Positions 11,537-28,989 of a DNA stretch of 64,000 bases are shown here, piece after piece. A model generated the notes under the pieces. The model saw nothing but the letters and a program-made list of their open reading frames with translations. It was not told where the DNA came from and made no database searches. The stretch is from Botryllus schlosseri. Lineage: Eukaryota. Positions within the stretch are counted from its first letter, which is position 1. Each line of letters opens with the position of its first letter. The DNA lies in NCBI GenBank assembly GCA_051294905.1, contig CM119371.1, positions 8,868,001 to 8,932,000 on the forward strand, written 5' to 3'. A program made the translations under genes and the position numbers.

Positions 11537-11830
11537 CATAGTCAGTGCTAAATTAGCGAATGATTTCTAGCGCATATGTCTGGACGCACAATTGCTAATG
11601 CTACCATAATGTCCTAAATGGTGTGGATACAGCGTGATGGAATGGCTCATTGCATTTGGGTTACGTCGCGCTTTATATTTGGCCAAAGGCAATTTTACGG
11701 CTATTTTTGAGAGACTTCTCGAGTGCTAAATCTCATAACGCGGGTATCAATGAAAAGCTACTGCTATCCTGATTACGAAAATATAGATTATATTTTGCTC
11801 ATAGCCCTTGAACCCCCCATAATCAGCCTC
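11537..11830 (+). repeat. Diverged fragment related to the foldback arm at 2760-2990
   Basis: Shared GGCAATTT.ACGG, GGGTATCAAT.GAAAGCT, CTGATTACGAAAATATA, GAACCCCC..AATCAGCC; starts CATAG. Confidence 0.6.
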
Positions 11831-12940
11831 GAATTTTGCATCGTGGCGAAGTTTAGCACTAATTCTGTCTGGTTCTTGCTCATGAGCTGCAGTCTCGTTT
11901 TGCCAGACAGCTTTGCTGCATCACTATCTCACCATGCCAAATTTCGTTATTGTTATACCGTAGTAGCCGAGTAGGATACAAGGTGCACTCATAACCTAAC
12001 TGCACCAAGCACGAACATTTTTAAAAGTTAATAAATTAGTTCGGCCAATGATAATGTCACTTGCATATATTGCGGGTTGCCTCTGTAACCAGTGGGCTCA
12101 TTTGGTAAACACAGGGTTATTCGGCGCATAGATTTATTCGGAGATAACATTATCGACGATTTTGGTGAAGATGCGCCAATCATTTTGTGCCAAGGTTTCA
12201 TCGCCGACCATCTTTCTGCGAGTGCAGACGCGAAGTCGGATGTTGGACGACACTTTCTCTTATAATGGCCAATATAATCAATTACGTAAATTGGGCGTAT
12301 CTTTATATTGGGAATGGGTACTAAAAGCAAGATATGAGTGACAATAAATCGCGCGAAGTGCTAAAAATATATCAAGTAAAATAAACCTACCACGAACTAT
12401 TCTACTTTATGGTCATATAGGGAGATCTACGAAAAATGTTGCTGGTCACGCCAATGCGTCGGAACTGGTATTTGAGTCACAAACATCCAAAATTTGTGGT
12501 CAGGCAAATCAAAGTTTTGGTTGGTCTTTGAAGTTCAAAGTATATATTAACTAAGTAATTTATTATTTGATATGGTAACTAATTTCGCGAATTATCTTGC
12601 AGGCTACTGAAAATCTTATCTCGGGCCACATGTGGCAGGCAGGCCACTGGTTGGGTACCTCTGATTTATAGATTGTTTATTGTCTGCTATAGACTAGAAT
12701 AATGTTGGGAACTCATGAACCAAACGCCCTATTTAACGGTACATGTGAAACATTTTAGTTTATCATACCATACATCTATAATGTGACGTAATTATTTATA
12801 GATTATATTTCATGATAACATCAGAATTTACATCAAACATTAGACGTAAAAAAATTTTATATTGTAGATTATGATAACATCAGAAATCCCAATTTGTCTA
12901 GGATTATGCGTGCGAAATATGATGACAAGGCTTTTTGCGG

Positions 12941-13122
12941 CATTTAATTTCCTGAAATTCGTGTTATTTACTATTTTTTATTCTTATCCTAAAAGATCTC
13001 CGTATGCTCTCTTCATCAGTTCCATATAGTACCATCATGCAGTATGCACCGTAGTAAATGCCGTCATTCTTATCAGATCATGTCGGTCAATGATTGACAT
13101 AATCACATACCCCATTTAAATT
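12941..13122 (-). repeat. LTR-like terminal direct repeat, 3' copy (segment A 12941-13091 followed by segment B)
   Basis: 12941-13091 matches 48630-48780 with 3 mismatches; contains AATAAA on the minus (coding) strand; lies ~240 bp beyond the env2 stop. Confidence 0.8.
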
Positions 13123-13357
13123 AACTTTCATGACCCGAGGGCAGTTCATTCAACTCTTATTTAGGCCTATTATAATTCATCAAGCACCTTAGGGCAGTTC
13201 AAATCCATAACTTTGATGTCATTTCGACATGTTGTGAGATACGATTTCGAAAGGTTGTTATTATAATCACGCAATATAATCGTGACTCGGAAGCGTATAA
13301 CAAAATAGTTTTTTTTTTTTATTAATTTTTTTGTTCTGTTTTATTAGTACCGTTTTA

Positions 13358-16300
13358 CTATGATACCATAACGCGTCCGCCCAATAGATTATCAGTTTCT
13401 TGTTCTACGACCTCCTTCTCTTGTAACACAGGTCTGGTATGCAACTTTCGCATGCTAATTCCGTGGTGGATGTTTCTATTGACAATTTTCCGCCTTGTAC
13501 TTGATTCTAACTTATTTCTTCTGCGATAATACTTCTTGCTAATGTATATCAAGGCTGCCACGGAAAAAAATAAGATAATGACGACCATCATTAATCTTTT
13601 ACTTTGGCCTTTTATTGGCCCTTGAATATTCCGTACATGAATGCCAGTCATTATGAAAGGTACTAGTTTTACCGAGTAGTTTTCTTCCATCTTTAATAAT
13701 TCATGTAGTTTTTCTGTTAAATTGAGCCTTATCAAAGTGTCTGTGGCATTCTTCGAATCGTACCCCCATATCTCAAGCGTGGAGACAGGGGCTTTAGCAG
13801 TTATCATTTGTGAATCGTTCCCTCCAAGAGTTGGGGGTAGACTTTTAATTGTATTCGGAATGCGAAGGGCCTTAGGGGTTTGTACCATGACCTCCTCTAT
13901 ACGGGAATCATTGAACCGTGTAATTACACGTGTCGTTGAAGGGTCGTCGATATTTTCACTGGACTCATTTATGGTGGTTTTGGTTCTATTGACCAACGGA
14001 TTCGGTTCCCTCGGTTCCGTCATATGCAATTCTCCACTCCTTCCGGCTTCTGGCAATGCTCTGGACATCGATGTACTTCCAGTGCCTTGCAAACCCCGAA
14101 TCACTTTCATCATTAGTATTGTGGCAGCGATACTTGGCGGTGTAGTTCCTGTTCTTTCGGTAGTAATCTCCGTCCCAGAAGAGGTCGTGCCATTTGGTAA
14201 AATTATCTTCGTCCCAATAGCAGCCGTGGTATTCGAGTGCATAGGTTTTATAATCATAACGGTCGGGTTACTCTCCTCCGTTGTACCCAAGGTCGGCCGA
14301 GTACTTAGAATTGTGGTTTCATAATCGTGGTCCCGAGATCGTGATGGATTCCTTATTACTTCAATTCTGTCTTCCAATGTCGAATTTGAGGTGTTTCTGG
14401 AGTAATAACTCAACATGGCTTGTAGAGGTACCTTTAGCGTGGAGGATATAACTGTTTCCGTTCCACTATTTATTAGGGATTCATCGCTATGTGATAATTC
14501 AGATTGGTTCTGTAGAGGGTGGCTTCTAATTGAATCCTTAGTTGTCGTAGAATTTGGGGTGGTCATAATTGTCGTAGAATTTGGGGTGGTCAGAATTGTC
14601 GTAGCGAATTCTGCATAGCTGGACATAGGACGTGTTGTTTGTTCCACCATTACCGTTTTCTCTCCTGAAGGGGTATTCTGGATCATCCTCCTGAGTTTTA
14701 AATTAGGTCTATTTGAAATTGTACTAATGTTCGCTGCATTCCCATACAGAGCGGGTCGTGTTGTTATAACTTCGGACCTCCATACGTCGGGAACAGGGAT
14801 CATGCTCCTTGAATCACTGTATTGTATGGGTTGTGTTGTTCTCACTCTTGAGGGAATAGTAGTACTATTATTCGTTATATTCCAGGGTTCTGTTGTTACC
14901 AAGAATAAATTGTTCCTTGATGACATCGAAAACTTTCCCTCCCCGTCTTTTTTCGAAAGGGTAGCAGTAACTGTTGTATAAGGAACGCCAGTCGATTTTT
15001 CCACAGAAGTGAGTATTGTCATGTTCGTCAAACGGGTTGTATGCGATGTGTTGTTATGATCTACCGGTCCTTCAGTAGGGGGAGAGGTGGGTTTGTTAGT
15101 AAATGGGTCCGGGTTTGTAGCAGAAATGTCCCCAGGCAGGGTGGGCGTCACATTAAAAAGGCGAACAGTAGTGTTAGACATGGACAATGTCCTATCCTTT
15201 CTGGTATCCACTTCAAACACGTTGGGTTGATAATCGGTCGTTATTCTAGCCTTTTCCGGAGGTGGTGAGGTTTGGATTATTTTACCAAGTGCCTCCGTTA
15301 TAGTTGTGTTGATGACGGTCAAATGCTCGTCCGTTGATGACCACAGAGGATTCGCCCTGCTCGTTTCATTTCCCACCACCAAAATCGTACTGGCGTGATC
15401 TGAAAAATTGCTAACACCTTGTTTAGTAAGTCTTCCCCTAATTATTGTCATAAGAGGAGGAGCTTGTGTGCTTTCCGACACATTTCCCGCCGTCGAGGCT
15501 GGGACTTCTATAGTGGTCAACACGTTATTGGGAGCTGCTGTAGTCGTGTTCACCAAACGTAAGCGAGGCCTTTTTTTGTAGGCGTATGGTGTGTAAATAA
15601 GGCTTCCATTCAGAAAGTATGCCTTGTAACACACGTCCGGAGCGAATAGGTTAGTTTGTCGGGATTTTGCTTCCAATAAACTCTGGGCAGTGGCCATTTG
15701 GCTGAACGCTCTGTTCAGCCTTACAGCGTCAGATCCTGAAATACCCTTCTGCTGTCGGTTAATTTTGTTGAGAATCATATTTTTTGCCCTTCTTGGTATT
15801 ATTTCGCGGCTCATAACCATCTTTAACCGAGACCTTATAATAGCTATTGGTCTGGTTAAATTTCTGATTATGTCGACAGCTCGTTTGCGGGCTTGTAGCC
15901 AATTCTGACGAAACCACCCTTCAAGACTTTGTCCATTCGCACCTGACATCGTGAGAAGGAATGCCTGTTCTCTTTTTCTTGCTAATCCAGGAATATGCGT
16001 AAGCGTAGTTCCGACAAATTCTCCTCCGTAGGTGTTGACAAAAATGGGATGATTCAATGATGGATCATACGTCACTAGATTCCCCATAATGAGTTTGGCA
16101 GCCACCCCGCTGAAAGGATTGGTGCACTCTGTTCGGTTTGCGACACGGCCCTGACAGTTCGGATCTAAAGCAGTCATCGACGGGGAGGTTATTTTTATAG
16201 GCATACTCCCTTTCTGACGTCTCTTCGGTCCATCCCGTAATCTGTTGTTGGCATAATATCCGCCCTCCAATGAAATGTTAGCACTCGCCTTAACCCAAAA

Positions 16301-17221
16301 TATTCGATTTGACATCACCTTATCGAAAACTCCTGTGGGCCATAAGTTTTCAGACGCTGCCAGTTGTTCACCATTGTTTATGGGGTTGTCCGTGTTTTCT
16401 CTCGTAGTAAATGTGTCAATAGTAATATCTTCTTCCTGAACAATAAGTCCAAAATCTACAATACCAATCACTGGGTTTTCACCAGTAAATCGACAAGTAT
16501 AACACGTCGGAGATTCTCCTTGAGTAGTTGAGCAGGCATGGAAGTTTCGCATTGTAATGATTAGTCTAAAAGAGACTGGATTCCAATCCCTCGTGCAGTC
16601 AGCTATTACCCCGCGATAGTCTTTGAGCAAACTTATCACGAGAAATTTATAAACAGTCATGATAGGTGTGTACTTATTCCCAGGATTTCCGCGAGGGAGG
16701 GTGAATTGGTTTTCAGCCCATTGCCAAACGAAGCGTGCATCATACTGTTCCGACCGATGGAATCGAATTCGCCTCCCCAGGTAGGAATAATTCAAGGGTG
16801 GTTTTATGTAGAGAATTCTCCTAAGACACGAACAAGTCTGTTCTAACTTCAAAGGATCATCCCAGTATTGACCCTGTGATCCCCTCGGGAGAAGGTTATT
16901 CCGCATTGTTTGTCCAATAGTTTGTATCTTGCCAAACTGGGCATCATATCCGACAATTTCTCCATCAGATTTATAGCGATGTATTTGTTCGGGGTTCGTG
17001 TTAGCCAATGTTATTTCTAAATTGAATAACTCTTGAAGTAGTGCCCTCGAGCTGTTAAACAAGCTCTCGTCATAACGGGTCCATGTCGAAGTGTTCAAGC
17101 TTTCAATAGGTAATATCTTCATGTCAATAAAAGGGACTCGGCCAGTAACATGAGAACGTCCTGACCACGCGGCCGACAGTAAAAGGACCATAACAACGAT
17201 GATGTGATCCAACTTCTTCAT
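13358..17221 (-). CDS. Envelope-like type I glycoprotein 2 (1287 aa): Env1-paralogous N-terminal domain, long S/T/N-rich mucin-like stalk, TM and basic tail
   Basis: Signal peptide MKKLDHIIVVMVLLLSAAWSG; Cys and motif colinearity with the 785-aa ORF; many N-x-S/T sites; TM LMMVVIILFFSVAALIYI followed by KKYYRRR. Confidence 0.8.
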   Translation of the reverse strand: MKKLDHIIVVMVLLLSAAWSGRSHVTGRVPFIDMKILPIESLNTSTWTRYDESLFNSSRALLQELFNLEITLANTNPEQIHRYKSDGEIVGYDAQFGKIQTIGQTMRNNLLPRGSQGQYWDDPLKLEQTCSCLRRILYIKPPLNYSYLGRRIRFHRSEQYDARFVWQWAENQFTLPRGNPGNKYTPIMTVYKFLVISLLKDYRGVIADCTRDWNPVSFRLIITMRNFHACSTTQGESPTCYTCRFTGENPVIGIVDFGLIVQEEDITIDTFTTRENTDNPINNGEQLAASENLWPTGVFDKVMSNRIFWVKASANISLEGGYYANNRLRDGPKRRQKGSMPIKITSPSMTALDPNCQGRVANRTECTNPFSGVAAKLIMGNLVTYDPSLNHPIFVNTYGGEFVGTTLTHIPGLARKREQAFLLTMSGANGQSLEGWFRQNWLQARKRAVDIIRNLTRPIAIIRSRLKMVMSREIIPRRAKNMILNKINRQQKGISGSDAVRLNRAFSQMATAQSLLEAKSRQTNLFAPDVCYKAYFLNGSLIYTPYAYKKRPRLRLVNTTTAAPNNVLTTIEVPASTAGNVSESTQAPPLMTIIRGRLTKQGVSNFSDHASTILVVGNETSRANPLWSSTDEHLTVINTTITEALGKIIQTSPPPEKARITTDYQPNVFEVDTRKDRTLSMSNTTVRLFNVTPTLPGDISATNPDPFTNKPTSPPTEGPVDHNNTSHTTRLTNMTILTSVEKSTGVPYTTVTATLSKKDGEGKFSMSSRNNLFLVTTEPWNITNNSTTIPSRVRTTQPIQYSDSRSMIPVPDVWRSEVITTRPALYGNAANISTISNRPNLKLRRMIQNTPSGEKTVMVEQTTRPMSSYAEFATTILTTPNSTTIMTTPNSTTTKDSIRSHPLQNQSELSHSDESLINSGTETVISSTLKVPLQAMLSYYSRNTSNSTLEDRIEVIRNPSRSRDHDYETTILSTRPTLGTTEESNPTVMIIKPMHSNTTAAIGTKIILPNGTTSSGTEITTERTGTTPPSIAATILMMKVIRGLQGTGSTSMSRALPEAGRSGELHMTEPREPNPLVNRTKTTINESSENIDDPSTTRVITRFNDSRIEEVMVQTPKALRIPNTIKSLPPTLGGNDSQMITAKAPVSTLEIWGYDSKNATDTLIRLNLTEKLHELLKMEENYSVKLVPFIMTGIHVRNIQGPIKGQSKRLMMVVIILFFSVAALIYISKKYYRRRNKLESSTRRKIVNRNIHHGISMRKLHTRPVLQEKEVVEQETDNLLGGRVMVS

Positions 17222-17343
17222 CGTGGTTCTTGTTATAAGTTTATAAATCTTAGTCGTATTCCTATACCTAAATGCAGTTGTTTATGTCATTAGTCTGTCT
17301 TTAGTCACTACTTGTCTTTTCTTATAAAGAATCTTTGTATTAC

Positions 17344-19701
17344 CTATCGCCGAATAGTCAGGGGTGCCATATAAGCCGTATATGTCGTCAACTCATTTCG
17401 GTTATTTCGACCTTGTATCTTATCATGTGTTCTCCTTTTGTTAGGGAAGACGACCGGGTAGAGTTTAATCATACAAATAAGTATTCCGATCACAACCACT
17501 ACAATTATAATCGGTGTGAGTATTCCCGTTAGACTCCCAAATATCGCACCCAAGCCAGAACCAAATAACCCGCTCACTCCGTCAATACCCTGGGAGAGTA
17601 TTTCCCCAGCTCCTTCCGCTACGCTCCGAATAATCGTTCCTGTGCCATTAGCGACGGTCTTAACGGCATCCCCGAAGTCATCAAAGAATTCTTCCCCTAT
17701 TACGCGATTCAAGTGGATAAAACTGATATTATCATACTCCATATTTGAAGTATTTACAAACACGCCGCTGTCCACATCTTCTTGCCAGCGTTGCAATTCA
17801 ATTTCAGCTTGGTAGTCGATGCTCTGTATTTCTCTTCGCGTGTTTTGTAATTCCAACGCCTGATTTTCGGAAACATTTGCATAGTCGCCTTTCAGCTCAA
17901 TCATTTTCTCCGCAATTTCGCGTAGGCTTAAAATCCCTGACTTAATTCGTACAGCGTACGCCTTGTTTCTATCAAATATAGGTTTCGCTGTTAGATTTTG
18001 TAACTCCTGCATAACCAATTGATTAATGCTCAACTCAGCCAATGTCATTTCTTGTACGGTTTGGATCGTGGATAGATAACTATCCACTTGTGCTAATATC
18101 ATGTTTCGATTGGTCCATATCATACTGGTGATAGTTTGGAGCCTTGCCTCGGTAGCTGCTTCCCTTCGCAGATTTGTCAGGATCAACTCGTTCAATTTCT
18201 GAGCCCGGGCAACCCCTATAAGGGAAAGATCGTTTAATCCGTCAGCTACCGTCTTCAAATCATTTTCTATTTGTGTAAATCGGGCGTTCAGTTGCGCAGT
18301 TAAGTCGTCCATATTTTTGTTGATCATGTGCTGTAGATTTGAAGTTACGGCCAGAGTTAAAATTGTCGAGAATGCTAATACGAATAATGAGAAAAACATT
18401 CTTTTTCGCCTTCCCGTCCCTCCTGGAAGTGTAGAATTCCCGTCCTCTAAACCTGTTTTGTGACCTCCCAGTACCACGAGAGGTTTTCCGGGGTATCTTC
18501 TTCGATTGGCCTGGGAATCGTAGATAATGTCGTCCCAATAGGACAGTTTCATGTGCAAGTCCCCAACAGGATATTCACAGGTTGCTTTATTTTCCCGTAT
18601 TCGTCTCACACACCGCTGATCGTCCTTCAATAACGAAGGGTATTGGCGGTATATCGGTAATATTCCCGAAATCTTGATAGGCTTCCTTCCATCCATATAA
18701 TCTAAGCCGTATTTATTCGGATAAGTGGGTCGAATCCAAATTATATTTTCCGGTAAAGTTGGTTTGTCACCCAATATAGCATTTCTCCACACAGGTGCTG
18801 ACGGGTGGTAATTGTGTACTCCAGGCACATATTCCATTTCAATGTCTAGCGACGTCTTTAAATTTCTAGTTGGGTCCTCTTCCTGTATAAGAATTTTGCT
18901 AGGATGGGGTTGATAAGCCACAACCAAACCGCGAAAAGTACAGGTCGTACATCGTAATATCTGGAGTAGACGAACACAATCCACCAGATCTGTAGAACTA
19001 TCGTTGTAGATATTTCTTTGTAACATCATTGCCTCGGTCCTTACCGTATAGGTGACACAATTTATTCTAATACTAGAATATGTGGCAAACATTTTCAACG
19101 CTTTTAATTTATACTTCATAATGGCTATCTGGAATAGGCCGCGAGGATTCCAGCCTCTAATCGTTTCGTCCGTATCGTTCCACCTCCATACCAACCGGTA
19201 ATTATTTCCAGTAGGTCTCACATATACATTTTCCGATTCCAGAGCTTTCAAGTTCAGATCAGGCGTAATATATGCCTTTGTTCGTCGACACAAGCAAGTC
19301 TTTTCGAACGCATTTATATCTTCCCAATAATGCCCAGTCGGATACATGTATTCTTGAAACGTGATCTTCTCGGCCTTCACATAACCAAACGTGGATGAGA
19401 AAAACAATCCAGGGTTACTAAAGTTATAAGTTGAATTCCTTATGTCCCAGCACGACGCTAGAGAAATGTGTTCCCAAGGCGATGATTTCAATTCGGTCCA
19501 ATCTGCGGGAAATTTCTTAGGCAGCCTTCCAAACTGAGCCTGGACTATCGTTCCAGCTCTGTCGTCATAGTATGGTATTGTGCTTGCGGTGGTAGTTATA
19601 TTACTTGCAGATATTGTCGATCCCGTCGTCCTCGGCAATAGCACACTAAGTGTATGAAGCAAGCCACACAAGTAATAATTAATAGTAGAAACGCTGACCA
19701 T
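17344..19701 (-). CDS. env: Envelope fusion glycoprotein-like protein 1 (785 aa)
   Basis: Signal peptide; furin site RRKR (18400-18411) immediately followed by hydrophobic MFFSLFVLAFSTILTLAV; heptad-repeat region; Gly-rich amphipathic membrane-proximal segment; TM IIIVVVVIGILICMI; Kozak context GCACCATGG. Confidence 0.85.
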   Translation of the reverse strand: MVSVSTINYYLCGLLHTLSVLLPRTTGSTISASNITTTASTIPYYDDRAGTIVQAQFGRLPKKFPADWTELKSSPWEHISLASCWDIRNSTYNFSNPGLFFSSTFGYVKAEKITFQEYMYPTGHYWEDINAFEKTCLCRRTKAYITPDLNLKALESENVYVRPTGNNYRLVWRWNDTDETIRGWNPRGLFQIAIMKYKLKALKMFATYSSIRINCVTYTVRTEAMMLQRNIYNDSSTDLVDCVRLLQILRCTTCTFRGLVVAYQPHPSKILIQEEDPTRNLKTSLDIEMEYVPGVHNYHPSAPVWRNAILGDKPTLPENIIWIRPTYPNKYGLDYMDGRKPIKISGILPIYRQYPSLLKDDQRCVRRIRENKATCEYPVGDLHMKLSYWDDIIYDSQANRRRYPGKPLVVLGGHKTGLEDGNSTLPGGTGRRKRMFFSLFVLAFSTILTLAVTSNLQHMINKNMDDLTAQLNARFTQIENDLKTVADGLNDLSLIGVARAQKLNELILTNLRREAATEARLQTITSMIWTNRNMILAQVDSYLSTIQTVQEMTLAELSINQLVMQELQNLTAKPIFDRNKAYAVRIKSGILSLREIAEKMIELKGDYANVSENQALELQNTRREIQSIDYQAEIELQRWQEDVDSGVFVNTSNMEYDNISFIHLNRVIGEEFFDDFGDAVKTVANGTGTIIRSVAEGAGEILSQGIDGVSGLFGSGLGAIFGSLTGILTPIIIVVVVIGILICMIKLYPVVFPNKRRTHDKIQGRNNRNELTTYTAYMAPLTIRR

Positions 19702-19857
19702 GGTGCCGGCACAGGTACGTCGGGAAATTTCATTAATTATAATTTTTTCAAATAGCTGTAAAGTTATCTGTCTGTAAAAGCATAAATAGGGTTAGGCGAA
19801 TTGCGTTCTGTGTTCGAAGCCGTAATATTGTCTCAGAGAGGAGGGATAGAGTATGTT

Positions 19858-20862
19858 TTAGGCGACAGTGGTACCACATACATTGAAACGAGGGTCCTCC
19901 CTTATGGACCTTAACAATGACTCAAATATGTCGTTTCTGTCATGCTGACGTTTGTATAACCACTCATCTACGTACTCTTGTAACAAGTGTCTGGCCAGTC
20001 CACGCGAGCGCCTCATGTGGTGCTTCAGACTAGACCAAGCCGCTTCCTGATCGTTCGTATGCGTCCCATCAGGCGCTCGAAACATAGCGCTATGGTCGAC
20101 TGATCTGTGTTTATAATCTTGCCCCCACTCCTCTATGCCATTATAAGAGGGGTAACAATCCGTTAATATGGTAGATCCCCTGGCTATATTATTTACAAGT
20201 ATACGCTTCATTACCGCTGCCGTCCTGTCAGATGTTATTTCTGCAAACATTTCTCCTGTTGCTCGGTCAAGTCCACCCACAACCCAAACTGCCTTCCGGG
20301 CTGAAGGATCATTGGTCGTGTCGCGACGTCGCTTCGCCAGATGCGACTCGTCCACAACTATGATACTTTGGTAGCCGCCTAGTTTTCGTTTATGTCGTCG
20401 TAAATCCGCAGCACACACTCGTCTCAAGCATCCAGACCAAAACACAATAGATCGGAGGCTAATTTCTGATTCGTGGGAGATGTGATTTTGCGGGCTGTCG
20501 TGGGCCCAGAAATATGTCATTATAAGTAATTCAGGTAGCCCAACCTTGCTATTACTAAATATAGATCCTTTCCGAATAGAGGAGGTTGTCCTGCACTCAT
20601 TTTGTTGGCAGCGATATCTCCATCCATCATCGCTGGCTCCTGTTCGCTCTTCTACCATTGTGGATCTGCATTTTCGACAGGTCATTTGCCGAGACAGTAA
20701 TCCTTGGCTTCTCATGAACATAATGCAATCGCGGGTATTCAGTAAGACTCCAGATTGGGCCAGACGTAGTACATTATGGGGTACTTCTTGAGCGTCTGTA
20801 AGGGTAAAAATAAAATAGGTACAGATATATTCTTGGTTGGTTTGCACCTCTTGTGTATTCAT
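19858..20862 (-). CDS. IS1595/ISXO2-like (Merlin-type) DDE transposase, copy 1 (334 aa)
   Basis: N-terminal CxxC..DGWRYRC..C Zn ribbon, SIRKGSIFS, VVDESH, VWVVGGLDR, STILTDCYPSY, VDHS..F..PDGTHTNDQEAAWS, YVDEWLYK. Confidence 0.9.
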   Translation of the reverse strand: MNTQEVQTNQEYICTYFIFTLTDAQEVPHNVLRLAQSGVLLNTRDCIMFMRSQGLLSRQMTCRKCRSTMVEERTGASDDGWRYRCQQNECRTTSSIRKGSIFSNSKVGLPELLIMTYFWAHDSPQNHISHESEISLRSIVFWSGCLRRVCAADLRRHKRKLGGYQSIIVVDESHLAKRRRDTTNDPSARKAVWVVGGLDRATGEMFAEITSDRTAAVMKRILVNNIARGSTILTDCYPSYNGIEEWGQDYKHRSVDHSAMFRAPDGTHTNDQEAAWSSLKHHMRRSRGLARHLLQEYVDEWLYKRQHDRNDIFESLLRSIREDPRFNVCGTTVA

Positions 20863-20906
20863 GTCTCTTTCTTGTAACTTAAGATAACACTGTGAAATTT
20901 TACTGA

Positions 20907-23900
20907 TTATTGTTTTTTGTCCGCAAACTGTATTACTGCGGAAGGGATGGGTCCTCTACACAAAATTACATCTGGGTTGGGTGACTGCCACATAATCATA
21001 CCCAATTCCCTGATTTTGCTGGCGTCAATTTGTAAAGCCACCTTTCGTCCCCGAGATTTCCCACTTCGGGTTAGGCTAAAGTGAATGTATTTCCGGGGCA
21101 TTCTTTCAAGCTCAGTCTGCATAATCCGTTGAGCGCCATTCCGCGTAGTCATGTGGTACAGCTTGTCGTTACCAGTATATTCCTCATAAGCGGGAGGCTC
21201 ACCCACGGTATGTCCGTGTGCAGCCGCGAGCCCCTCATCTTGAAGAACAGCCCTGGAATTGTTTTGCATGATTGACCTTAGGAAGTGACTTTGGAACTCT
21301 TTCCCCAGTTTTCTCCTTAGGATTTCTTGCAGATGTCCCCAGGGATGAAATCCACCATGGCTGTGGTCACATACCTCGTGCCTACAGTGCCGCATTAAAA
21401 GTCTCTGTATGAATTCATGTCTGGCAGAGTCCAATTCGTTTGGTGCGTCCGCACTCTTCGTCGTAGGTAAAGTGGTCCATACACAAGGGTCGTCTTCCCC
21501 TGCGGCCATTTCCATCCAATAAGAACGAGAAAGCCCATCGGATGTGAATACCTGTAGCGTACTTAAATGAATCACTTTATCTATTTGGAATCCTGATAGA
21601 TGGTTGAGCCATCGCTGGATTAGTGGTTTTGGGCTCGGATTCGCAGCTTTTTCTGTCATCCTTTTCAATAGTCCGAATACCCCTGTATTGTCTGTGATAA
21701 TGGTAAATGGTATTGCGCGCAACATAGATTGCCATTTTTCCACCGAATCTTTTAGAGCTTTGAGCTCTTTTGTACACGGATCATATGCCTTTGCCGTTTG
21801 GGTAGTCCATTTTTGGCTATAAAAAGCAATCGGGTATATCTTCGTAAAGGGCGGTTTTTCTCCTTCTTCTGTCTGAAATATTACGGAACCGAATCCTACA
21901 TCAGAAGCATCGGTTTCGATATACAGCGGGAGTTCTGGGTCCAGATGATATAGTACCCTTGCGTCGTCCAGTAAGGCTTGGGCCACCTTATAATCATGCA
22001 ACAACTCATCGTTCCATAGTAAGGGCGTTACTCTTCCTTGTGTGGCCGGTACTTTCCCCGTTAACGCGTCGAACTTTGCTAGCTTCAGGCTCAATTCAGG
22101 TATGTGTTCTGAGATGTATCTCAATGCCCCGATCCAACCCCGTAGCTCATAAATGTTATGAGGTGGCGCAAGTTCTTTCAGGGCTCTAACTCGTTCGGGT
22201 TGGACCTCAATTTCTTTGCCTGTTAAGGTTGCGCCCAGCAGATTCACTCGCCGCTTGCCAATGAAACACTTATTGATGCTCACTGTCAATTTCATCTTAG
22301 CCAATTGTTCAAACACCATTCTGAGCAGCACCAGGTGATCCTCAATGGTCTTTGTGCTCAGGAAGATGTCATCAATGTAGGCCTCCATAGGCGTCACAGT
22401 GGACTCATCAGTCCTCCCACATTCTCGCATGAAGCGTTGATAATTCTCAGTGATGGGTTTAACCACACATTCCTGCATATTTGAAGTCCAAAGGGCTACT
22501 GCGGTCCGAAGACCCATTGGCATCTTTCGCCAGCGTATATGCCTGCCCTTTACGGCAATGCCTACGTATTGTTTTGATCTTTCCGTCATTTCCATGTGAA
22601 AATAGGCCTTCTTCAAATCCAATAGGGATAGTACCTCACGACCTTGAGCAAGCTGCTTCACGTCAGGTACTAATGGAGGGGGTACCTCTATGGATTTGAT
22701 GGCTGCATTAAGGGGTTGGAGATTCTGTACAACCCTCCATGCCTGTTTCCACCCGCCTTCTTGCTTCTGTCTTTCGTTCATTTTTTGAGGTACTACAAAT
22801 ATGGCCAGTTTCCATTCAGCAAATCCTTGTTCAATGACTTCGAGATCTAAAAAATTATCCACAGCCTCTTTTAAGGCTTTTGCCTGTTCTTCGCCCTTTA
22901 GATTATAAGGCCCTGACACAAAAGGTTTGGTTGAAGGGTCCTTCAATTCGATGTCACATTTGTATTTCATGGCTTGTGGGGCTTTGAGGTGTCCTCGTAG
23001 ATCTTCAAGTTCCGTAGCGTAAGGTTGATATACCTTCCTCCATTCTGCCTCAGGTACGATAGTGTTATCTGGGCTGGTAAGATCCGGTGGCTTATAGGGT
23101 GATTTCGCCAGTTCTACAGCTTGTTTACACAATCTTTCTAATTCGTCTCTAACGTCTGTCTTGGTCCCTTTACACAGTTCATACGTAGTTATCGGACCGC
23201 GAATTGGCCTGGTTGGGCCTTGACGTATTTCCGGTACCGATGGAGAGGGGGCGAGGTCTCCTTTGGTCAGTGGGGCTTCCACACTCGACTTGTTCTGCCT
23301 CTGAAATAGGCGCGTGCCCGCACCTATTTTCACGCCGACGACTCCCTTTTCCCTTGTCGCCGGGGGCCCTTTTTCTGGTAGGGTTTGCATATTTCCTCCA
23401 GACTCTTCGTCATCCACCCTGTTCTCTTTCCCAGAGGAGATGGCGACAGCTGCATTTGAAATAGTTTTCTCGGTTGGTGGCACGACGAATGCGACCATCG
23501 GGTCGTGGACAATATGTCGGCCGTTTTTATCAGGATCCTTCCATACGCCCGTGTCCTGATTATTGCTAGCGGGAATTCTTCGCTCAGCATGATTGGATTT
23601 GGGGGGGACACTACCCCCCATATTGAGATTAGCGTGACCGGACGTCCTCCCTTGTGCGCTAAATCTCTCCGAGAAAGAGGGATTGCCGAAATCCCGAATA
23701 ACGTCAGCGGGGCTTCCACACTCGACGTTGTAGAATGTCGCAGCTTCCATCGCTCCGTCACCAGAAGCAACGTTGCAAGTGCTACTTCTGTTTCCGGTTC
23801 CTTCATCGCCAATTAACGCGGCAAACGTCAATTCATTATTAACTGCAGTAGGGTCTTTAAATTCCATTTCTATAGATGGAAGTTGCTGAACTTGGTCAAT

Positions 23901-24323
23901 CCACTTCAACCCTATAATATTTAATGGTACTCTATCACCAGTCGCAAATGGAACTGGTAAGCCATCTATCATGATTATTATCAGGTAATCAACACAGGAC
24001 AATCCACCTATGCCGCGCAATTTCATTTCGAAAGGTTGCCTTTTGGCCCAACTAAGGGGGTATTTATCCTTGGCTACCTCCTTCAAAATCAGATTTGGGA
24101 CACTTCCCGTGTCGGCTAAGAATTTAGTTCCTGTTTTTTTGTCCATTAGGTACAATAAACGACCACCGAACAATTCAGTAAAGTCAGCCTGTGGCGTATT
24201 GTCCGGTATGTCGAGAAAAGTAAATAGGGGTAAAGAAGAATTATGTACAGTTTTAACGTGGTAAGGTAACACTGATTCGGGCAACTGATTTACCGGATCC
24301 ATCAGTGCCCCCAGTCGTTTTTT
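20907..24323 (-). CDS. pol: Pol polyprotein (aspartic protease, spacer, RT, RNase H, Tpt1/KptA-like domain); probably made as Gag-Pol by -1 frameshift; no integrase
   Basis: LADTGS protease (24105-24113); RT motifs WRVVQNLQPLN, LDLKKAYFHM, MPMGL, YIDD (22368-22379), LLG; Ty3/gypsy-type RNase H ETDASDVG..PIAFYS..KELKAL..IITDN. The ORF-track start at 24362 is TTG. Confidence 0.92.
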   Translation of the reverse strand, partial: KKRLGALMDPVNQLPESVLPYHVKTVHNSSLPLFTFLDIPDNTPQADFTELFGGRLLYLMDKKTGTKFLADTGSVPNLILKEVAKDKYPLSWAKRQPFEMKLRGIGGLSCVDYLIIIMIDGLPVPFATGDRVPLNIIGLKWIDQVQQLPSIEMEFKDPTAVNNELTFAALIGDEGTGNRSSTCNVASGDGAMEAATFYNVECGSPADVIRDFGNPSFSERFSAQGRTSGHANLNMGGSVPPKSNHAERRIPASNNQDTGVWKDPDKNGRHIVHDPMVAFVVPPTEKTISNAAVAISSGKENRVDDEESGGNMQTLPEKGPPATREKGVVGVKIGAGTRLFQRQNKSSVEAPLTKGDLAPSPSVPEIRQGPTRPIRGPITTYELCKGTKTDVRDELERLCKQAVELAKSPYKPPDLTSPDNTIVPEAEWRKVYQPYATELEDLRGHLKAPQAMKYKCDIELKDPSTKPFVSGPYNLKGEEQAKALKEAVDNFLDLEVIEQGFAEWKLAIFVVPQKMNERQKQEGGWKQAWRVVQNLQPLNAAIKSIEVPPPLVPDVKQLAQGREVLSLLDLKKAYFHMEMTERSKQYVGIAVKGRHIRWRKMPMGLRTAVALWTSNMQECVVKPITENYQRFMRECGRTDESTVTPMEAYIDDIFLSTKTIEDHLVLLRMVFEQLAKMKLTVSINKCFIGKRRVNLLGATLTGKEIEVQPERVRALKELAPPHNIYELRGWIGALRYISEHIPELSLKLAKFDALTGKVPATQGRVTPLLWNDELLHDYKVAQALLDDARVLYHLDPELPLYIETDASDVGFGSVIFQTEEGEKPPFTKIYPIAFYSQKWTTQTAKAYDPCTKELKALKDSVEKWQSMLRAIPFTIITDNTGVFGLLKRMTEKAANPSPKPLIQRWLNHLSGFQIDKVIHLSTLQVFTSDGLSRSYWMEMAAGEDDPCVWTTLPTTKSADAPNELDSARHEFIQRLLMRHCRHEVCDHSHGGFHPWGHLQEILRRKLGKEFQSHFLRSIMQNNSRAVLQDEGLAAAHGHTVGEPPAYEEYTGNDKLYHMTTRNGAQRIMQTELERMPRKYIHFSLTRSGKSRGRKVALQIDASKIRELGMIMWQSPNPDVILCRGPIPSAVIQFADKKQ
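20910..21425 (-). other. Tpt1/KptA RNA 2'-phosphotransferase-like domain at Pol C-terminus
   Basis: Colinear family motifs: CRH (LRH), GGF (dGw), IMQNNSR, AAHGHT (RAnqGHS), LYHMT (lyHGT), ERMPRKYIHFS (kpmkRqhVHLS), ALQIDA, QSPNPDVILC..PIP. Confidence 0.8.
24262..24323 (-). promoter_or_regulatory. -1 programmed ribosomal frameshift signal (A AAA AAC plus stem-loop/pseudoknot)
   Basis: In the gag frame GCA AAA AAC (24317-24323); pol is in the -1 frame; downstream GGGCACTGAT pairs with ATCAGTTGCCC, and loop GGTAA could pair with a later TTACC. Confidence 0.8.
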
Positions 24324-27295
24324 GCTAATCTCAACCCCTGGTCCAATTCCTCGTCGGTCCAATATGGATTAATACGGGATTGTGGGGGATAATATGGCTG
24401 GGTCCATGCTACCGTATCGGCATTGTGAGTGGGTCCCCGTGGTCCCCATTGATCTCTATCGCGCCAATGGGTCCTGTCTCTATTCTTAGGTCTTTCGTTA
24501 TAATACGTGTCACACAGGGCTGTTCTCTCAACAAATGAAGGGGACCCTTGTGAGGCTAAGTATCGATCCAAATCAGGTATCGAGAGTAGTCGATTTTCAG
24601 TTAGAAAAGGACGCCAATTCCTTTCTACAAATTCCTTTATGCGAGGTGGTACAGGTCGTCGTCGCTTTTGGATTACCCATCCCTCGGTATCGTCTTTAGT
24701 TAGGACCTCCTCATTCAGCCATAATATGAATTTGGCTACGCAATTTCGAGATTGGTGCCCTGGTGCCTTGCAATAATAACATACAGACAATGTTTGCCCC
24801 TCTGACGGGTTCAAATATAAGCCTAGAGGTGCAAAAATATTGGGGTTACCAAGGAAATTATACCTCTCACCTTGACTGTTGGAAATCTGGCTCGCCTCGT
24901 GGCTACTCGATGGAGTTGCTTGAGAATAGTCCCTTCCGAAGCCCGAATCCTGCGTCTGCGAAAATCGCGGTTGTCCTCGGTTTAATGTTCTCCTTTCCTG
25001 GTTCGGTCGCGAGGTCGGAGAGTTCTGAGAGTAGTGACCGTTACCTCTATCTCCCGCTGGACGTCTCTGCGAAGGCGAGATCCCCTGTGGTCTATTCGCT
25101 ACCCCACCCTTCGAAGTGGGTCTTTCCCGACTGGGATTTCCGTGGGCTATTACCGTCGTGGGGAATCGGTTCGTCTTTGCGGCCCTGCCTGGGTTTATCC
25201 TTGTCACAGGCTGGTACGTTGTCCGGGCGCGTCTTCCGACGTCCATAGGTTGTCGACTCTGAGGTGACACGTTGTTGAGCATAGATTGTGAAGAGGGAGA
25301 GGGCGAGTTGATAATGGGGGGCGTGGGGGTACGTATCGGCTGGGAATTGTCTATTCTCCCATTTCCAGTGGGCTGGGTTGGGTAGCTAGGCATCATGTGT
25401 CCGGCAGGTTGTACATTGTAAATATGTACGGGTGGCAGAGAAGGAGCACTTACAGCGTGTGCCTTTTTGTTGGGAGCCCTCGTCTCGCTAGGGAACCTCC
25501 CTTCTTCCTGATCGTCTAGGAACTCGGAATTCCAGAACATCTGTAACTCCTCAGCCACTTGTTGCCACGTCCCCTCTTCCCAACCGCGGATCATCATTCT
25601 CAACGCCTGAGGCAGTTGACGTCGTAGATGTCTGAACAAACGCAGCCCGTCGGGGTTTTTCTTAATGTAGCTTCCCATATTTATTTCGAGTTGCTTCAGC
25701 ACACTATTCAACAACGGCAGTGGTTCTTCATTCCAGGAGTAATTACTCCGAAATTCGTTAATGATCTTTTCGTTATTCACTAAACCTTGAGGGTTGGAAA
25801 GGTTGAGGGACCTCATAACGGAAAACCAACTCGGTTTGCCCGAGTTGGTGTTGAAAAAGTTTCCCAACTGTCTGGCCTGCTTTATACGTCCTGCCTGTCT
25901 CAGCTTTTTCTGCATGGCGTTTGATAAGATTATATCTTCGTTCGTATCCCCCTCTCCATGATCGATGCGAGCCATCGTATTAGCCATCCATTTAACAAGG
26001 GGCATGTCGTCCGGGTCCATCATGAGTTGCATCATTTCCTTTTCGGTTTGTAATCTGATAGGCCGTTCCCCAGCGTGGAACTCACGTGCTTGACTCGGGG
26101 TCCCCAATTCCCCTGGTGGATTGCAAGTATAACCTTGTTGCTGTTCTACAATTCCTTCCTCACTGTAATCAGGAGTGGACTCAAACCGTGGGGAACCAGC
26201 GGTGAATCGAGACGGGAAGTAAATCTGCCTAAAATTGCTAGGATCGCGGAGAGCGTCTTGTGGTTTGTGGCCATTATTGTTAAGGATAGAAGTCTTGGTT
26301 TCCCTATCTTCTAGGGGACCTCTTCCAATCCTTTCAAAAGTAACGTGCCTGGTTTCGTCTGGCTCGCTCCTCGCTCGTCTTTTGACGGAGATTTTATCGC
26401 TTGTTCGTTGACCGTCCTGTCCACGTTGGTCGTCCTGCCTACCCCGGTCTCCTCCTATTCGTACCAATCCGGCCGCCCCATGATACTGTTTCGTGGAGTC
26501 GTGTTCATGTTGATCTTCCACGCTCGGTCTAGGACGGATCGGCGTGTACATGTCAGTGGAGGGACGTCCTGATGATACGGTCGGAGGGCCGTCCGGCCCA
26601 AATTTATCCAAGGATTTCGAGCGTCTCATCCCTTTGGCACTAAGCAGTCCCTGACCGGGACTGGCTGCCAGTCTAAGAGCGGGACTGGCTGGTTGTAGGT
26701 TTCCGGTTTTTTGAATCGGTTGTTGCTGGGGTGATTTGTGTGTTGGACCTTCCGACTGAGTCTGGGGGGAGGCCGTATATACAGCTGTAATTGTATGGCA
26801 ATCAAGTCCTTTGCTCACATGAAATTTGGGCCTAAGGACGGCTCCCCCCCATGACGGGTTTGTTGGGTGGTGATATGCTGGTGGGGGTGAAGTGGGTATT
26901 ACTGTTAGCGCGTTAGATGGTCGAGAGGTCTCCCCGATTACCGACGCATGTTCCTTTCCGAGGTCGAATTCAGCCTTCAAAACTTCGTTTAGTACATCTG
27001 TGGAAACTTTACCACTGACCTTGGTGGTAGCGTCACATACTGCTTTCAAATCAGCCTTAGCCTGTTTTACCTCTTTCTTTATTTTGTCCAATTCTTTCAT
27101 AGTACCCGGCAGGACTGTTTTGACTTCCTTCAGCAGTTTGGTTTGGTCTGCGACACTTTGAGTGAGTCTTTTTTCCTGATCCTTTACATTTTCATGGCGT
27201 AATTGTGTGGCTCTGAACAGCTGAATTCCTTGTTCTAATTCCGCAGCTGTCTCCGTTGATCTTTTCTTTTTGAACAACTTCACCATTTTTTCCAT
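24302..27295 (-). CDS. gag: Gag-like polyprotein (997 aa)
   Basis: N-terminal coiled coil, PPAY motif, central helical domain, CCHC knuckle CYYCKAPGHQSRNC (24740-24781), position directly upstream of and overlapping pol. Confidence 0.85.
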   Translation of the reverse strand: MEKMVKLFKKKRSTETAAELEQGIQLFRATQLRHENVKDQEKRLTQSVADQTKLLKEVKTVLPGTMKELDKIKKEVKQAKADLKAVCDATTKVSGKVSTDVLNEVLKAEFDLGKEHASVIGETSRPSNALTVIPTSPPPAYHHPTNPSWGGAVLRPKFHVSKGLDCHTITAVYTASPQTQSEGPTHKSPQQQPIQKTGNLQPASPALRLAASPGQGLLSAKGMRRSKSLDKFGPDGPPTVSSGRPSTDMYTPIRPRPSVEDQHEHDSTKQYHGAAGLVRIGGDRGRQDDQRGQDGQRTSDKISVKRRARSEPDETRHVTFERIGRGPLEDRETKTSILNNNGHKPQDALRDPSNFRQIYFPSRFTAGSPRFESTPDYSEEGIVEQQQGYTCNPPGELGTPSQAREFHAGERPIRLQTEKEMMQLMMDPDDMPLVKWMANTMARIDHGEGDTNEDIILSNAMQKKLRQAGRIKQARQLGNFFNTNSGKPSWFSVMRSLNLSNPQGLVNNEKIINEFRSNYSWNEEPLPLLNSVLKQLEINMGSYIKKNPDGLRLFRHLRRQLPQALRMMIRGWEEGTWQQVAEELQMFWNSEFLDDQEEGRFPSETRAPNKKAHAVSAPSLPPVHIYNVQPAGHMMPSYPTQPTGNGRIDNSQPIRTPTPPIINSPSPSSQSMLNNVSPQSRQPMDVGRRARTTYQPVTRINPGRAAKTNRFPTTVIAHGNPSRERPTSKGGVANRPQGISPSQRRPAGDRGNGHYSQNSPTSRPNQERRTLNRGQPRFSQTQDSGFGRDYSQATPSSSHEASQISNSQGERYNFLGNPNIFAPLGLYLNPSEGQTLSVCYYCKAPGHQSRNCVAKFILWLNEEVLTKDDTEGWVIQKRRRPVPPRIKEFVERNWRPFLTENRLLSIPDLDRYLASQGSPSFVERTALCDTYYNERPKNRDRTHWRDRDQWGPRGPTHNADTVAWTQPYYPPQSRINPYWTDEELDQGLRLAKNDWGH

Positions 27296-27301
27296 AATTA
27301 T

Positions 27302-27532
27302 TTAACTAGTTTCGTTATATGGAAAATTTCTAACAGGAAATAGTGCCTCACTTGTTGATTCCGATATATTTACCGAGTTGGGTAGACCAAGAGTGGGGGC
27401 AGTAGAAGTAGGAGGGGCCACAGTAGGAATTAAGTGAAAATACAAGGAATCCAAAGTGACCAGTAGTGTTATGAGTGAAGCGACGACGAAGATGAGAAAG
27501 GCTCCGCCGAAACAACACGTTTTGAACCGCAT
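27302..27532 (-). CDS. Small single-pass membrane protein (~76 aa from ATG) abutting gag
   Basis: Hydrophobic run AFLIFVVASLITLLVTL; stop codon 6 nt before the gag ATG. Confidence 0.45.
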   Translation of the reverse strand: MRFKTCCFGGAFLIFVVASLITLLVTLDSLYFHLIPTVAPPTSTAPTLGLPNSVNISESTSEALFPVRNFPYNETS

Positions 27533-28443
27533 CAGATCGTCCAACCTCAAAACTAATTTTGTTATATCTTCGGGGAGAATGTGTTTATCACCTTAAGTGT
27601 CTTTTCAACGCTGTTAGGTATCCCAGTGGTGCCTCCAATAGTTTTAAGTGAAGCTCCACGGCGATTGCACGTGCGAGTATGTCTCCACTTGGTTCGGTAT
27701 CCTTCCAGTGTTGAAATTGCACTTGTATGGTTCTTCACACCCTATTCCGCGCTTATGGTTGATTGAAGTAAATGCAATGACCGTTTGATTGAACAATTCA
27801 TCAATCTTTTACCGGTCCAGCGGCCAGATCTTGGTCTATACTATAAGATAAATCTTAATACAACCTTAATACAACCAAATACTCCAATCTTAATCACGTT
27901 CAATACTCGGAAAAGGACTATAGCGAATATAAATCAACACATGACTTAGGCTATCAATCCATCGTTCAAGTACATCACGCAATTATATAATGATCTTCAC
28001 ACCAATTCTCAATATTATTTCGCAAATCCTACAGTGAATGGGTCTTGCCTAAAGTGTTGGGTTTATTATACTGTTAACACAGGTTTTTGTTATTCCATCC
28101 TTGTTTTTCGTGGTCATTCACTGGTAGTTTTATTTAGTTTATGACGTCATAGCATTTCCAGGGCAAGCAATTCCCGTTCCTACGATAATCACACTATAGG
28201 GGCATGTGATTTTCAATCCACCTAGGCACAACTCATTCACTGCTATTCATCCCCATTAGAGGAATTGTAAAAGGACTGAATCCACATATAATACGATATT
28301 GTCTTAGACCTAAGTAAATGTAATCATGTACGCACCAGAAATAATTAAAGACACAAGTATTTACACACAAATTTAGTTACGCTTTGTAATATACACAGTC
28401 GCCATTAACAATTGCCCCCTGGTGTATTTCATTTTAGCGGACT

Positions 28444-28989
28444 TCATTGGTATCCTGGGTCCGCATAATCCAAACTGTATTGGTTAATTCTCTGTCGTCG
28501 GTTCTTAAGAGTATCAAATACTTTTGAGATATTTTGTCGTGTTTGGCGCCTCCCGGAAGTAACCAATATCTCTGTTGGCGCCCCTCTTTGTGATTCTTCG
28601 GTAATGGTACTTTTCAGGTATTGCCTTACCCTTCCCAGCTTTTGTTCCGCATCTCCCTCGGTGGACTTATGTATTGTTCTGCATCCTTTTATGATCTTCA
28701 ATACCTTCAGGGATCGCTCACGGACTTTGTCCGGATTCTGTTGTTCTCTTGTCTCTGCAGGTTCAGCAGATATAAAAAATCTATGTAGTATATCATTGAG
28801 GGCCTTCAGGGTAGGCTTTTCTATGTTACTCATCAACCCAATCAGGATGTCGAACTCCTCGATGGTTGCAATTAGTGCTGTATTTACACTGTAGCTTCTA
28901 GAATGAGAGATCTCAATTCTCTTGATGTTTCGGCAATGAGGCATGTTCCCAATCGTCCAATTCTTCTTAATACACCTTAGGGTGTACAA
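28444..28989 (-). CDS. Hypothetical helical/basic protein (181 aa; first ATG 28944)
   Basis: Uninterrupted ORF, same strand as the cluster; no recognisable motif. Confidence 0.5.
   Translation of the reverse strand: MYTLRCIKKNWTIGNMPHCRNIKRIEISHSRSYSVNTALIATIEEFDILIGLMSNIEKPTLKALNDILHRFFISAEPAETREQQNPDKVRERSLKVLKIIKGCRTIHKSTEGDAEQKLGRVRQYLKSTITEESQRGAPTEILVTSGRRQTRQNISKVFDTLKNRRQRINQYSLDYADPGYQ

Follow-up and report, generated by a model that had tools for sequence, protein, structure and literature searches.

A 64,000-nt stretch of the Botryllus schlosseri genome (GenBank assembly GCA_051294905.1, contig CM119371.1, positions 8,868,001 to 8,932,000; hereafter the window, in whose own numbering all coordinates are given) contains an intact transposase gene of the IS1595/Merlin type, Tnp1, packed between the pol and env genes of a retrovirus-like element in which neither an integrase nor long terminal repeats (LTRs) are found. 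Tnp1 is probably a real gene of this integrase-less retroelement, and a role of its product in insertion is plausible. The fuller proposal, that Tnp1 is maintained by selection and supplies the DNA-breaking and joining step to an element devoid of integrase and LTRs, is given an even chance of being correct. The evidence that carries it comprises the integrity of the gene and of its catalytic residues, its tight packing within the block, the integrase-like fold predicted for its product and a probable second copy in which the transposase again lies beside an envelope gene.

An intact IS1595/Merlin-type transposase

Tnp1 and its two bordering spacers are located as follows.

19858-20862, minus strand: Tnp1, IS1595/Merlin-type DDE transposase, 334 amino acids, intact from ATG to TAA (profile matches, alignments, AlphaFold2)
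20863-20906, minus strand: pol-Tnp1 spacer, 44 nt, with acceptor-like TTTCACAG
19702-19857, minus strand: Tnp1-env1 spacer, 156 nt, with two pyrimidine-rich acceptor-like sites ending in TTTACAG and no AATAAA

The family assignment and exact coordinates, both already given by a first-pass annotation of the sequence, are borne out by two profile matches above their cut-offs, to Pfam PF12762 (DDE_Tnp_IS1595; E 1.9e-13, 51.2 bits for a cut-off of 27, residues 174-304) and to NCBIfam NF033547 ('IS1595 family transposase'; E 1.1e-21, 77.8 bits for a cut-off of 75, residues 105-306). The catalytic candidates picked out at that stage, in the motifs VDE, TD and NDQE, are D171, D235 and E273, which occupy the catalytic columns of the family and are separated by 63 residues (D171 to D235) and 37 residues (D235 to E273). 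A 10-row alignment shows no variation at D235 and E273 and conservation of at least 90% at D171, and in an 83-row alignment each of the three reaches at least 90%. The protein also carries a four-Cys zinc ribbon of the form CxxC...CxxxxC (C62, C65, C85 and C90), likewise conserved in the alignments.

An AlphaFold2 model built from the 83-row alignment has a predicted local distance difference test score (pLDDT) of 91 and a predicted template-modelling score (pTM) of 0.86, and its top Foldseek matches in the PDB are integrase chains of retroviral intasomes together with Mos1. A second, independent structure alignment of the core against representative structures ranks the catalytic cores of the simian immunodeficiency virus (SIV) and mouse mammary tumour virus (MMTV) integrases highest (Z 12.9 and 12.6, respectively, with root-mean-square deviations of 2.8-2.9 over 127-133 residues), followed by IstA (Z 9.4), Ty3 integrase (9.2), ISCth4 (9.2), Hermes (8.5) and Mos1 (6.8). 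The predicted core is a compact, integrase-like DDE domain, a likeness of fold that says nothing of function.

Tnp1 lies on the same strand as its neighbours, 44 nt after the pol stop codon and 156 nt before the env1 ATG, as first annotated. The reported lack of transposon ends also holds: 8-nt seeds over 19000-21800 gave four inverted pairs, none of them in either spacer, and no direct repeat of the kind left by a target-site duplication (TSD) was found in the spacers by the same search. Since no transposon ends surround it, Tnp1 is not a recent nested Merlin.

From stop to stop, the Tnp1 frame extends over 19858-20955, so that it is open for 31 codons 5' of its own ATG, in the -1 frame of pol; the part at 20910-20955 overlaps the last 16 pol codons across a run of six A. 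A pol-Tnp fusion through -1 frameshifting was considered and set aside, as the heptamer is imperfect and the 106 nt downstream fold no better than shuffled sequences (z +0.82); judged from the overlapping frames, such a fusion is conceivable as a possibility only.

A packed retrovirus-like block without an integrase

The remaining features of the block, which read in the order gag, pol, Tnp1, env1 and env2, are given below.

27296-27864, minus strand: leader or 5' untranslated region between a spliced-leader copy and gag, with no open reading frame (ORF), on the same zero-difference unitig as gag
24302-27295, minus strand: gag, 997 amino acids, CCHC zinc knuckle at residues 838-852
20907-24302, minus strand: pol, 1131 amino acids, with protease, reverse transcriptase (RT), RNase H plus Tpt1/KptA-like domain; stop codon at 20907-20909
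24105-24113, minus strand: protease motif of pol, D64-T65-G66 (DTG)
22224-22748, minus strand: RT of pol (Pfam RVT_1, E 8.3e-18)
21588-22016, minus strand: RNase H of pol (Pfam RT_RNaseH_2, E 2.4e-18; RT_RNaseH also matched)
20952-21341, minus strand: Tpt1/KptA-like domain (RNA 2'-phosphotransferase family), C-terminal in pol, residues 988-1117
17344-19701, minus strand: env1, 785 amino acids; RRKR at 431-434, hydrophobic segment 434-456, membrane anchor 715-754
13358-17221, minus strand: env2, 1287 amino acids; N-terminal domain, stalk, membrane anchor 1206-1231

The five ORFs share one strand and occupy 13,938 nt, with just 322 nt of non-coding sequence between them, and the gag stop and pol ATG even overlap (TGATG). 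The zinc knuckle of gag matches Pfam zf-CCHC slightly below the cut-off (E 9e-4, 19.6 bits for a cut-off of 20.8). No integrase was detected in pol, either as a match to the retroviral integrase core (rve) or the integrase zinc finger over the whole protein at E 0.01, or as an rve match in its last 300 residues even at E up to 10. Other insertion enzymes were likewise missing from the searches made: there was no Pfam match to a tyrosine recombinase in the 15 window ORFs scanned and no APE or REL endonuclease domain in the Pfam scan of the element's proteins. The 64 kb contain no tRNA gene.

The position directly behind RNase H, where LTR elements have their integrase, is occupied in pol by the Tpt1/KptA-like domain, which matches Pfam PF01885 (PTS_2-RNA; E 3.2e-9, 37.5-40.8 bits for a cut-off of 26), an NCBIfam profile (E 3.6e-12) and PDB entry 9ld4_A (E 9e-9). 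The first-pass statement that Tnp1 sits in the integrase slot is therefore correct in that Tnp1 lies between pol and env and pol has no integrase, but the slot inside pol is taken by this other domain and Tnp1 is a separate ORF. The Arg in the 'IRARYGHS' segment of 9ld4_A faces Ala in the window pol ('AAAHGHT'), and the related protein P0005 likewise has Ala there; the LYH...R.Y.H.S part of the family is retained. The catalytic set of Tpt1/KptA is taken here to be Arg-His-Arg-Arg.

Judged from its sequence, env1 is laid out like a class-I-type fusion glycoprotein, with a putative furin site, fusion peptide and anchor, and no sequence match to it was found in the PDB. The N-terminal domain of env2 is a paralogue of env1 (23% identity over 353 residues), and its stalk is rich in Ser, Thr and Pro and bears 33 glycosylation sequons.

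Candidate ends and expression

Two features mark candidate limits of the element.

27865-27889, minus strand: exact 25-nt copy of a spliced leader, in the orientation of the element and 569 nt 5' of the gag ATG; candidate 5' limit
13309-13345, minus strand: two AATAAA and a run of 12 A that ends 49 nt after the env2 stop codon; candidate 3' end

The 25-nt copy agrees at every position with the spliced-leader consensus that Table 1 of PMC3795323 lists as 'Chordata 1'; the pattern occurs once in the window and in none of 100 shuffles. It is followed by a tandem repeat of the last 11 nt of the leader. The stretch common to the window and to RNA reads, 27855-27889, measures 35 nt: the leader and up to 10 nt more. 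About 7,100 RNA reads with the same species label join the template-switch oligo directly to 27889, immediately 5' of the leader; they match over 32-35 nt, diverge at 27855 or 27858 and continue into at least two classes of downstream sequence. It follows that the host trans-splices.

On the DNA side, a zero-difference unitig covers 23816-27888 at depth 14.1 and the next unitig upstream has depth 9.48, the step falling at the leader. The leader copy with its depth step and the A-run together indicate that the unit may span 27889-13309 (14.6 kb) and resemble the image of an RNA. The leader copy may represent the 5' end of a template that had been trans-spliced, a leader-RNA gene fragment acquired by template switching, or an insertion target. 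A leader-RNA-gene structure at 27770-27889 was not supported (fold z -1.24, not significant; no Rfam match). Two repeat pairs were also discarded as boundaries: 10783-11320 and 44084-44623 (79%), considered as inverted repeats bounding a giant element, have no TSD and are more likely two copies of a dispersed repeat, and the direct repeat 12941-13104/48630-48792 (96%) is low-copy, lies 205 nt past the A-run and is not tied to the element.

An acceptor-like site precedes each of Tnp1, env1 and env2, and AATAAA is absent from the spacers between the five ORFs and occurs twice within 40 nt after env2. Together with a trans-splicing host, this arrangement suggests operon-like expression.

Copies and relatives of the element

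Read depths were taken from DNA contigs of at least 80% likeness, for which the single-copy flank stands at 9.5. On this scale, env2 reaches 15-29, env1 34-67, most of Tnp1 40-45, the RT 210-243 and much of gag 60-154, and the zero-difference unitigs of the element lie at 12-19. It follows that there are several diverged copies, and the depth of Tnp1 behaves like that of env1. Of 31 listed differences between pol copies, 23 are at third, 7 at first and 1 at second codon positions, an excess of third positions from which it follows that the family evolves under purifying selection.

The closest relatives of the window pol are P0005 and locus L001, which are nearly one element, and locus L002 (46-48% identity), followed by P0006 and locus L003 (35%); its named matches are of Ty3/Tf2 type. 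These closest relatives form a clade with the window pol (support 100), apart from 12 integrase-bearing matches of Ty3/gypsy type. The Tpt1-like domain is retained in P0005 and L002, at 46-47% pol identity, and gag parts homologous to the window gag are present in L001 and L002. An integrase is absent from P0005, L001, L002, P0006 and L003 as well, so that the RT lineage as a whole is integrase-less. As L001 breaks off within pol and L002 stops 77 nt past the end of pol, both are uninformative on the transposase, and L003 is the only one of the three loci to extend beyond pol. It is 13.9 kb long and encodes gag, a protease-RT-RNase H and an env-like ORF of 1,338 amino acids, the C-terminal part of which is weakly related to the fusion half of env1 (E about 1e-9). 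At 1716-1816 of L003, some 110 nt upstream of the first ORF, there is a long, near-perfect hairpin with arms of about 25 nt, which may serve the element as a terminal or regulatory structure.

Intact homologues of env1 are found in P0170 (56% identity, 100% coverage) and P0171 (54%), which are 68% identical to each other. P0170 and P0001, a 220-residue C-terminal piece of a transposase that is 88% identical to Tnp1 over residues 115-330, each turn up on a single Logan contig, whose length is 7,067 nt in both cases. In the window, about 3.3 kb separate residue 115 of the transposase from the end of env1, and the remaining 3.75 kb or so of such a contig would be close to the 3.86 kb of env2. On the grounds of equal contig size and this geometry, P0001 and P0170 are taken to lie on one contig, and a diverged second copy then very probably keeps the transposase beside env1. 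If they are one contig, 88% identity for the transposase against 56% for the envelope describes a strongly constrained gene next to a fast-evolving one.

Relatives of the transposase and a second gene, Tnp2

An exhaustive HMMER search with Tnp1 returned 5,829 representatives at E<=0.001 and 61 at E<=1e-30, with relatives of about 300 amino acids abundant. The nearest derive from run or metagenome assemblies: after P0001 come P0002 (58%) and P0003 (56%), which are intact proteins of the Tnp1 clade from other runs, and P0020-P0027 (34-40%), of which P0025 is a protein of Ciona intestinalis (35%). As a separate question, a fusion of RT and transposase was sought and rejected: all 10 representatives longer than 600 residues among the best 150 contain IS1595, helix-turn-helix (HTH) or zinc domains only, mostly in tandem. 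Neither Tnp1 nor the pol alignment, when scanned against IMG/VR, retrieved any relative.

The window itself holds one further member of the family.

30024-31076 (first ATG at 30959), minus strand: Tnp2, intact transposase with intact DDE, 41% identical to Tnp1

In a 75-row tree, Tnp1 groups with P0002 and P0003 as (Tnp1,(P0002,P0003)) with SH-aLRT support of 100. The sister of this group is Tnp2 with its clade-mate P0021 (51% identical to Tnp2; support 99), both groups join at 95, and they nest in a 17-row clade (96) that includes the Ciona protein. Searched over 27300-33500, Tnp2 has no terminal inverted repeats (TIRs) around it, and it sits on a unitig of single-copy depth (9.48), so that domestication or immobility of this transposase gene is conceivable. 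It is possibly a clue to the donor of Tnp1. Tnp2 lies 72 nt after the 174-residue orfU1 (the two lying within 30024-31672, minus strand), a paralogue of which, 31% identical, is found at 38024-38551. Neither orfU1 nor orfU2, which also lies beside Tnp2, matches a Pfam family or resembles the element's proteins; their best ESM Atlas score, 0.78, is a lead only.

The proposed role and what weighs against it

The proposal treats the five packed genes, on the minus strand from about 27889 to 13309, as one retrovirus-like unit that would be expressed from a single transcript, in keeping with the acceptor-like sites, the trans-splicing host and the confinement of clustered poly(A) signals to the region after env2. 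Tnp1 would descend from a Merlin/IS1595-type clade also present in tunicates, presumably by capture from a DNA transposon, and its product would cleave and join DNA: with the DNA of the element itself as its substrate, it would place the reverse-transcribed copy in the chromosome. The first-pass annotation had likewise held that a transposase was captured as the integrase of a reverse-transcribing element; the intact gene, its packing, its integrase-like fold and the probable second copy agree with this, but its part in integration stays a proposal and no end sequences for the enzyme were found. The observations that weigh against the proposal are set out here together with the alternatives on which they bear.

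The first concern the ends. No LTRs above chance flank the coding block in a repeat search, a blastn self-comparison or Smith-Waterman alignment against shuffles (27296-28450 against 12700-13357 scores 21, the shuffle mean being 23.3). The best inverted match is 18 nt long with one gap and scores 29 (shuffle mean 23.6, maximum 32), and there are no inverted pairs of at least 40 nt in 8000-34000. The terminal repeat that had been assumed for the element is thus not found at all, and an 8-9-bp TSD is seen at no candidate end, including 27889 and 13309, exact ends being undefined. No substrate for Tnp1 was found. If there are indeed no LTRs, reverse transcription would have to be completed other than by LTR-based strand transfer.

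These ends raise the alternative, which we consider unlikely, that Tnp1 is integral to the element but nicks chromosomal DNA so that polyadenylated RNA is copied by target-primed reverse transcription, in the manner of a long interspersed nuclear element (LINE), or that it acts on nucleic acids in some other way, jointly with the Tpt1-like domain. The leader copy at the 5' candidate end, the depth step located exactly there, the AATAAA and A12 found 49 nt past the last stop codon and the lack of LTRs and TIRs all agree with it; a leader, an A-tail and no terminal repeats fit nicking and priming at least as well as the classical integrase mode. Against this stand the missing target duplication at 27889 and 13309, and the 35 shared nucleotides, which exceed the 25-nt leader by 10 and hence may stem from a leader-RNA gene and not from a trans-spliced RNA. 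No RT of Ty3/gypsy type is known to prime at a target nick.

The distribution of the transposase also counts against the proposal. Tnp2 lies 9 kb upstream, past the leader copy and outside the gag-to-env block, between two ORFs and without accompanying retroviral genes, and it shows that the clade occurs outside the retroviral block as well, which calls for caution over capture and makes a local Merlin-related history conceivable. In addition, L003 has no LTRs, Tpt1 domain, transposase or integrase, and the RT lineage can therefore exist without the transposase. The first-pass annotation had named sister elements without a transposase as an outcome that would speak against capture; L003, a distant sister and the only one with readable flanks, answers to this in part; it also has no integrase of any kind. 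From these comparisons, the transposase and the Tpt1-like domain mark a sub-lineage, having been gained in it or else lost in L003. A solitary transposase nearby and a sister without one are both compatible with a passenger, that is, a Merlin-type transposon that inserted between pol and env, lost its ends and left an ORF surviving by chance or for its own benefit, of no use to the retroelement, and PMC8101967 reports Merlin-related ORFs without TIRs or TSDs in other eukaryotes. This explanation is judged quite improbable, given spacers as short as 44 and 156 nt in which no remnant of transposon ends is seen, an intact ORF with every catalytic and zinc residue in place and the 88% against 56% identity in the probable second copy. 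The GC content of Tnp1 (0.463) is close to that of pol (0.466), a weak point since that of Tnp2 is similar.

Further points against concern copies and transcripts. The linkage of P0001 to P0170 is read from equal contig size alone, and as P0001 begins at residue 115, the copy in question may be truncated or disrupted. At the pol-Tnp junction, the bin 20672-21338 has a depth of 19, barely above the 15.5 of the exact unitig, so that the junction is unseen in diverged copies. In the one bulk RNA run analysed (about 6% of its reads), depth over 14002-27341 is 0-0.25, nearly all of the 15,346 placed RNA reads falling on the leader copy and the A-rich tail; a search of sequencing runs lists no RNA run as containing the element.

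The block could also be an endogenised, integrase-less, pararetrovirus-like animal virus that entered the genome by accident, Tnp1 then being an accessory gene perhaps unrelated to insertion. The want of integrase and LTRs in both the window element and L003, the two envelope-type glycoproteins and the fact that relatives are known only from metagenome or run assemblies would suit such a virus, which is nevertheless held to be very improbable because several diverged copies in the DNA run of one genome fit repeated insertion better than a single accident. Finally, the best-matching DNA run may be the assembly's own source, a further point against, and for this reason only an assembly chimera of transposase and retroelement is raised, for which no positive evidence was found. 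It verges on the negligible: a zero-difference unitig of 3,090 nt (19639-22728) crosses the start of env1, the whole of Tnp1 and the 3' part of pol, and a 373-nt contig obtained from another sample in another study extends over 19795-20165, that is, the 3' end of Tnp1 and 63 nt of spacer, with 4 differences in 371 nt.

Comparison with known systems

In the DIRS, Ngaro and VIPER elements there is an earlier example of a lineage with Ty3-like RT/RNase H whose insertion enzyme was exchanged for one of another class; these elements use a tyrosine recombinase and bear characteristic terminal repeats. The window element differs from them in that no tyrosine recombinase domain was found in the ORFs scanned. 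The Caulimoviridae and similar viruses are integrase-less pararetroviruses known from plants, whose DNA genomes are circular and contain neither env nor a transposase; a protease-RT-RNase H without integrase or LTRs is the feature that the window element and L003 share with them.

In gene content the window element resembles the errantiviruses, envelope-carrying Ty3/gypsy elements that were recently surveyed across metazoans, tunicates among them (Chary and Hayashi, eLife, PMC13524379). According to that article, they have a gag zinc knuckle, a protease-RT-RNase H of Ty3/gypsy type, the order gag-pol-env and envelopes that, like env1, possess a furin site, a fusion peptide and a membrane anchor. 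The same text gives them an integrase in pol, LTRs and a tRNA primer site, whereas the window element has no integrase or LTRs that could be found and, unlike the errantiviruses as described there, has a Tpt1-like domain after RNase H, a separate DDE transposase ORF and a second env paralogue. The survey is described there as having required an integrase domain.

With Merlin/IS1595 (IS1016) elements, Tnp1 has in common the DDE_Tnp_IS1595 catalytic domain and the conserved DDE. In the available text of PMC8101967, Merlin is defined by TIRs of 24-462 bp ending in GG and TSDs of 8-9 bp around a single gene; the window element has neither these TIRs nor these TSDs and shares only the enzyme. The Merlins described in that text are without an N-terminal zinc finger, whereas the Tnp1 clade has its conserved four-Cys ribbon. 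The analogy with Teratorn (PMC10175614), drawn in the first-pass annotation, is sound only in so far as both are virus-like and have a cut-and-paste DDE transposase, on which Teratorn seems to depend while in the chromosome. It fails at the ends: Teratorn is presented in PMC10175614 as a piggyBac transposon fused to a herpesvirus, a DNA virus of about 180 kb with an enzyme of the piggyBac superfamily and transposon ends, and the window element is a reverse-transcribing unit of 14.6 kb with a Merlin-type enzyme and no recognisable ends. The likeness to Teratorn is thus one of kind and does not extend to mechanism. Troyka, for its part, is described in PMC12440569 as an LTR-retrotransposon superfamily with 3-bp target duplications, unlike the window element. 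Keyword searches of the literature, with subscription journals and supplements outside them, turned up no paper in which a gag-pol-env element has a Merlin/IS1595 transposase or a Tpt1 domain.

Other content of the window

The surroundings of the element include a plus-strand ORF for a hAT-type transposase with a dimerisation domain and a Spin-doc zinc finger (49870-51789), a minus-strand fragment of another RT (52928-53815) and a plus-strand NACHT/NOD-like ORF (61357-62925), all of which are ordinary content of an animal genome. A foldback-type inverted repeat of 634 nt, with arms 97% complementary and 842 nt apart, occupies 2760-4869, and a related piece of 220-260 nt lies at 11598-11858. 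The segment 12001-12667 is a very high-copy repeat, with a summed contig depth of about 8,100 against about 9.5 for the flank in the DNA run. A GAGTCAAGTC-like motif is clustered at 6.6-9.8 kb and again at 33.4-39.3 kb.

Implications for animal retroelements

Retroelements are classed by their mode of insertion, through an integrase, a tyrosine recombinase, a GIY-YIG nuclease or the APE or REL endonucleases of LINEs. If the proposed role of Tnp1 is true, a Merlin/IS1595-type transposase would be a new solution beside these, and the element would document a natural exchange, within a chordate, between the two main classes of mobile DNA. The wider reading, held tentatively and as somewhat less probable than its opposite, is of the first member of a new class of animal reverse-transcribing elements or viruses: enveloped, built on gag, pol and env, without LTRs or integrase, inserting through a captured Merlin/IS1595 transposase, possibly aided by the Tpt1-like domain as an end-modifying activity, and leaving copies that are images of a leader-capped, polyadenylated RNA. 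On this reading a fifth insertion enzyme would join the four kinds named above. The fusion of a Tpt1-like domain to RT and RNase H is unexplained and directly testable. Were the proposal correct, surveys that require an integrase domain would miss a lineage of animal retrovirus-like elements.

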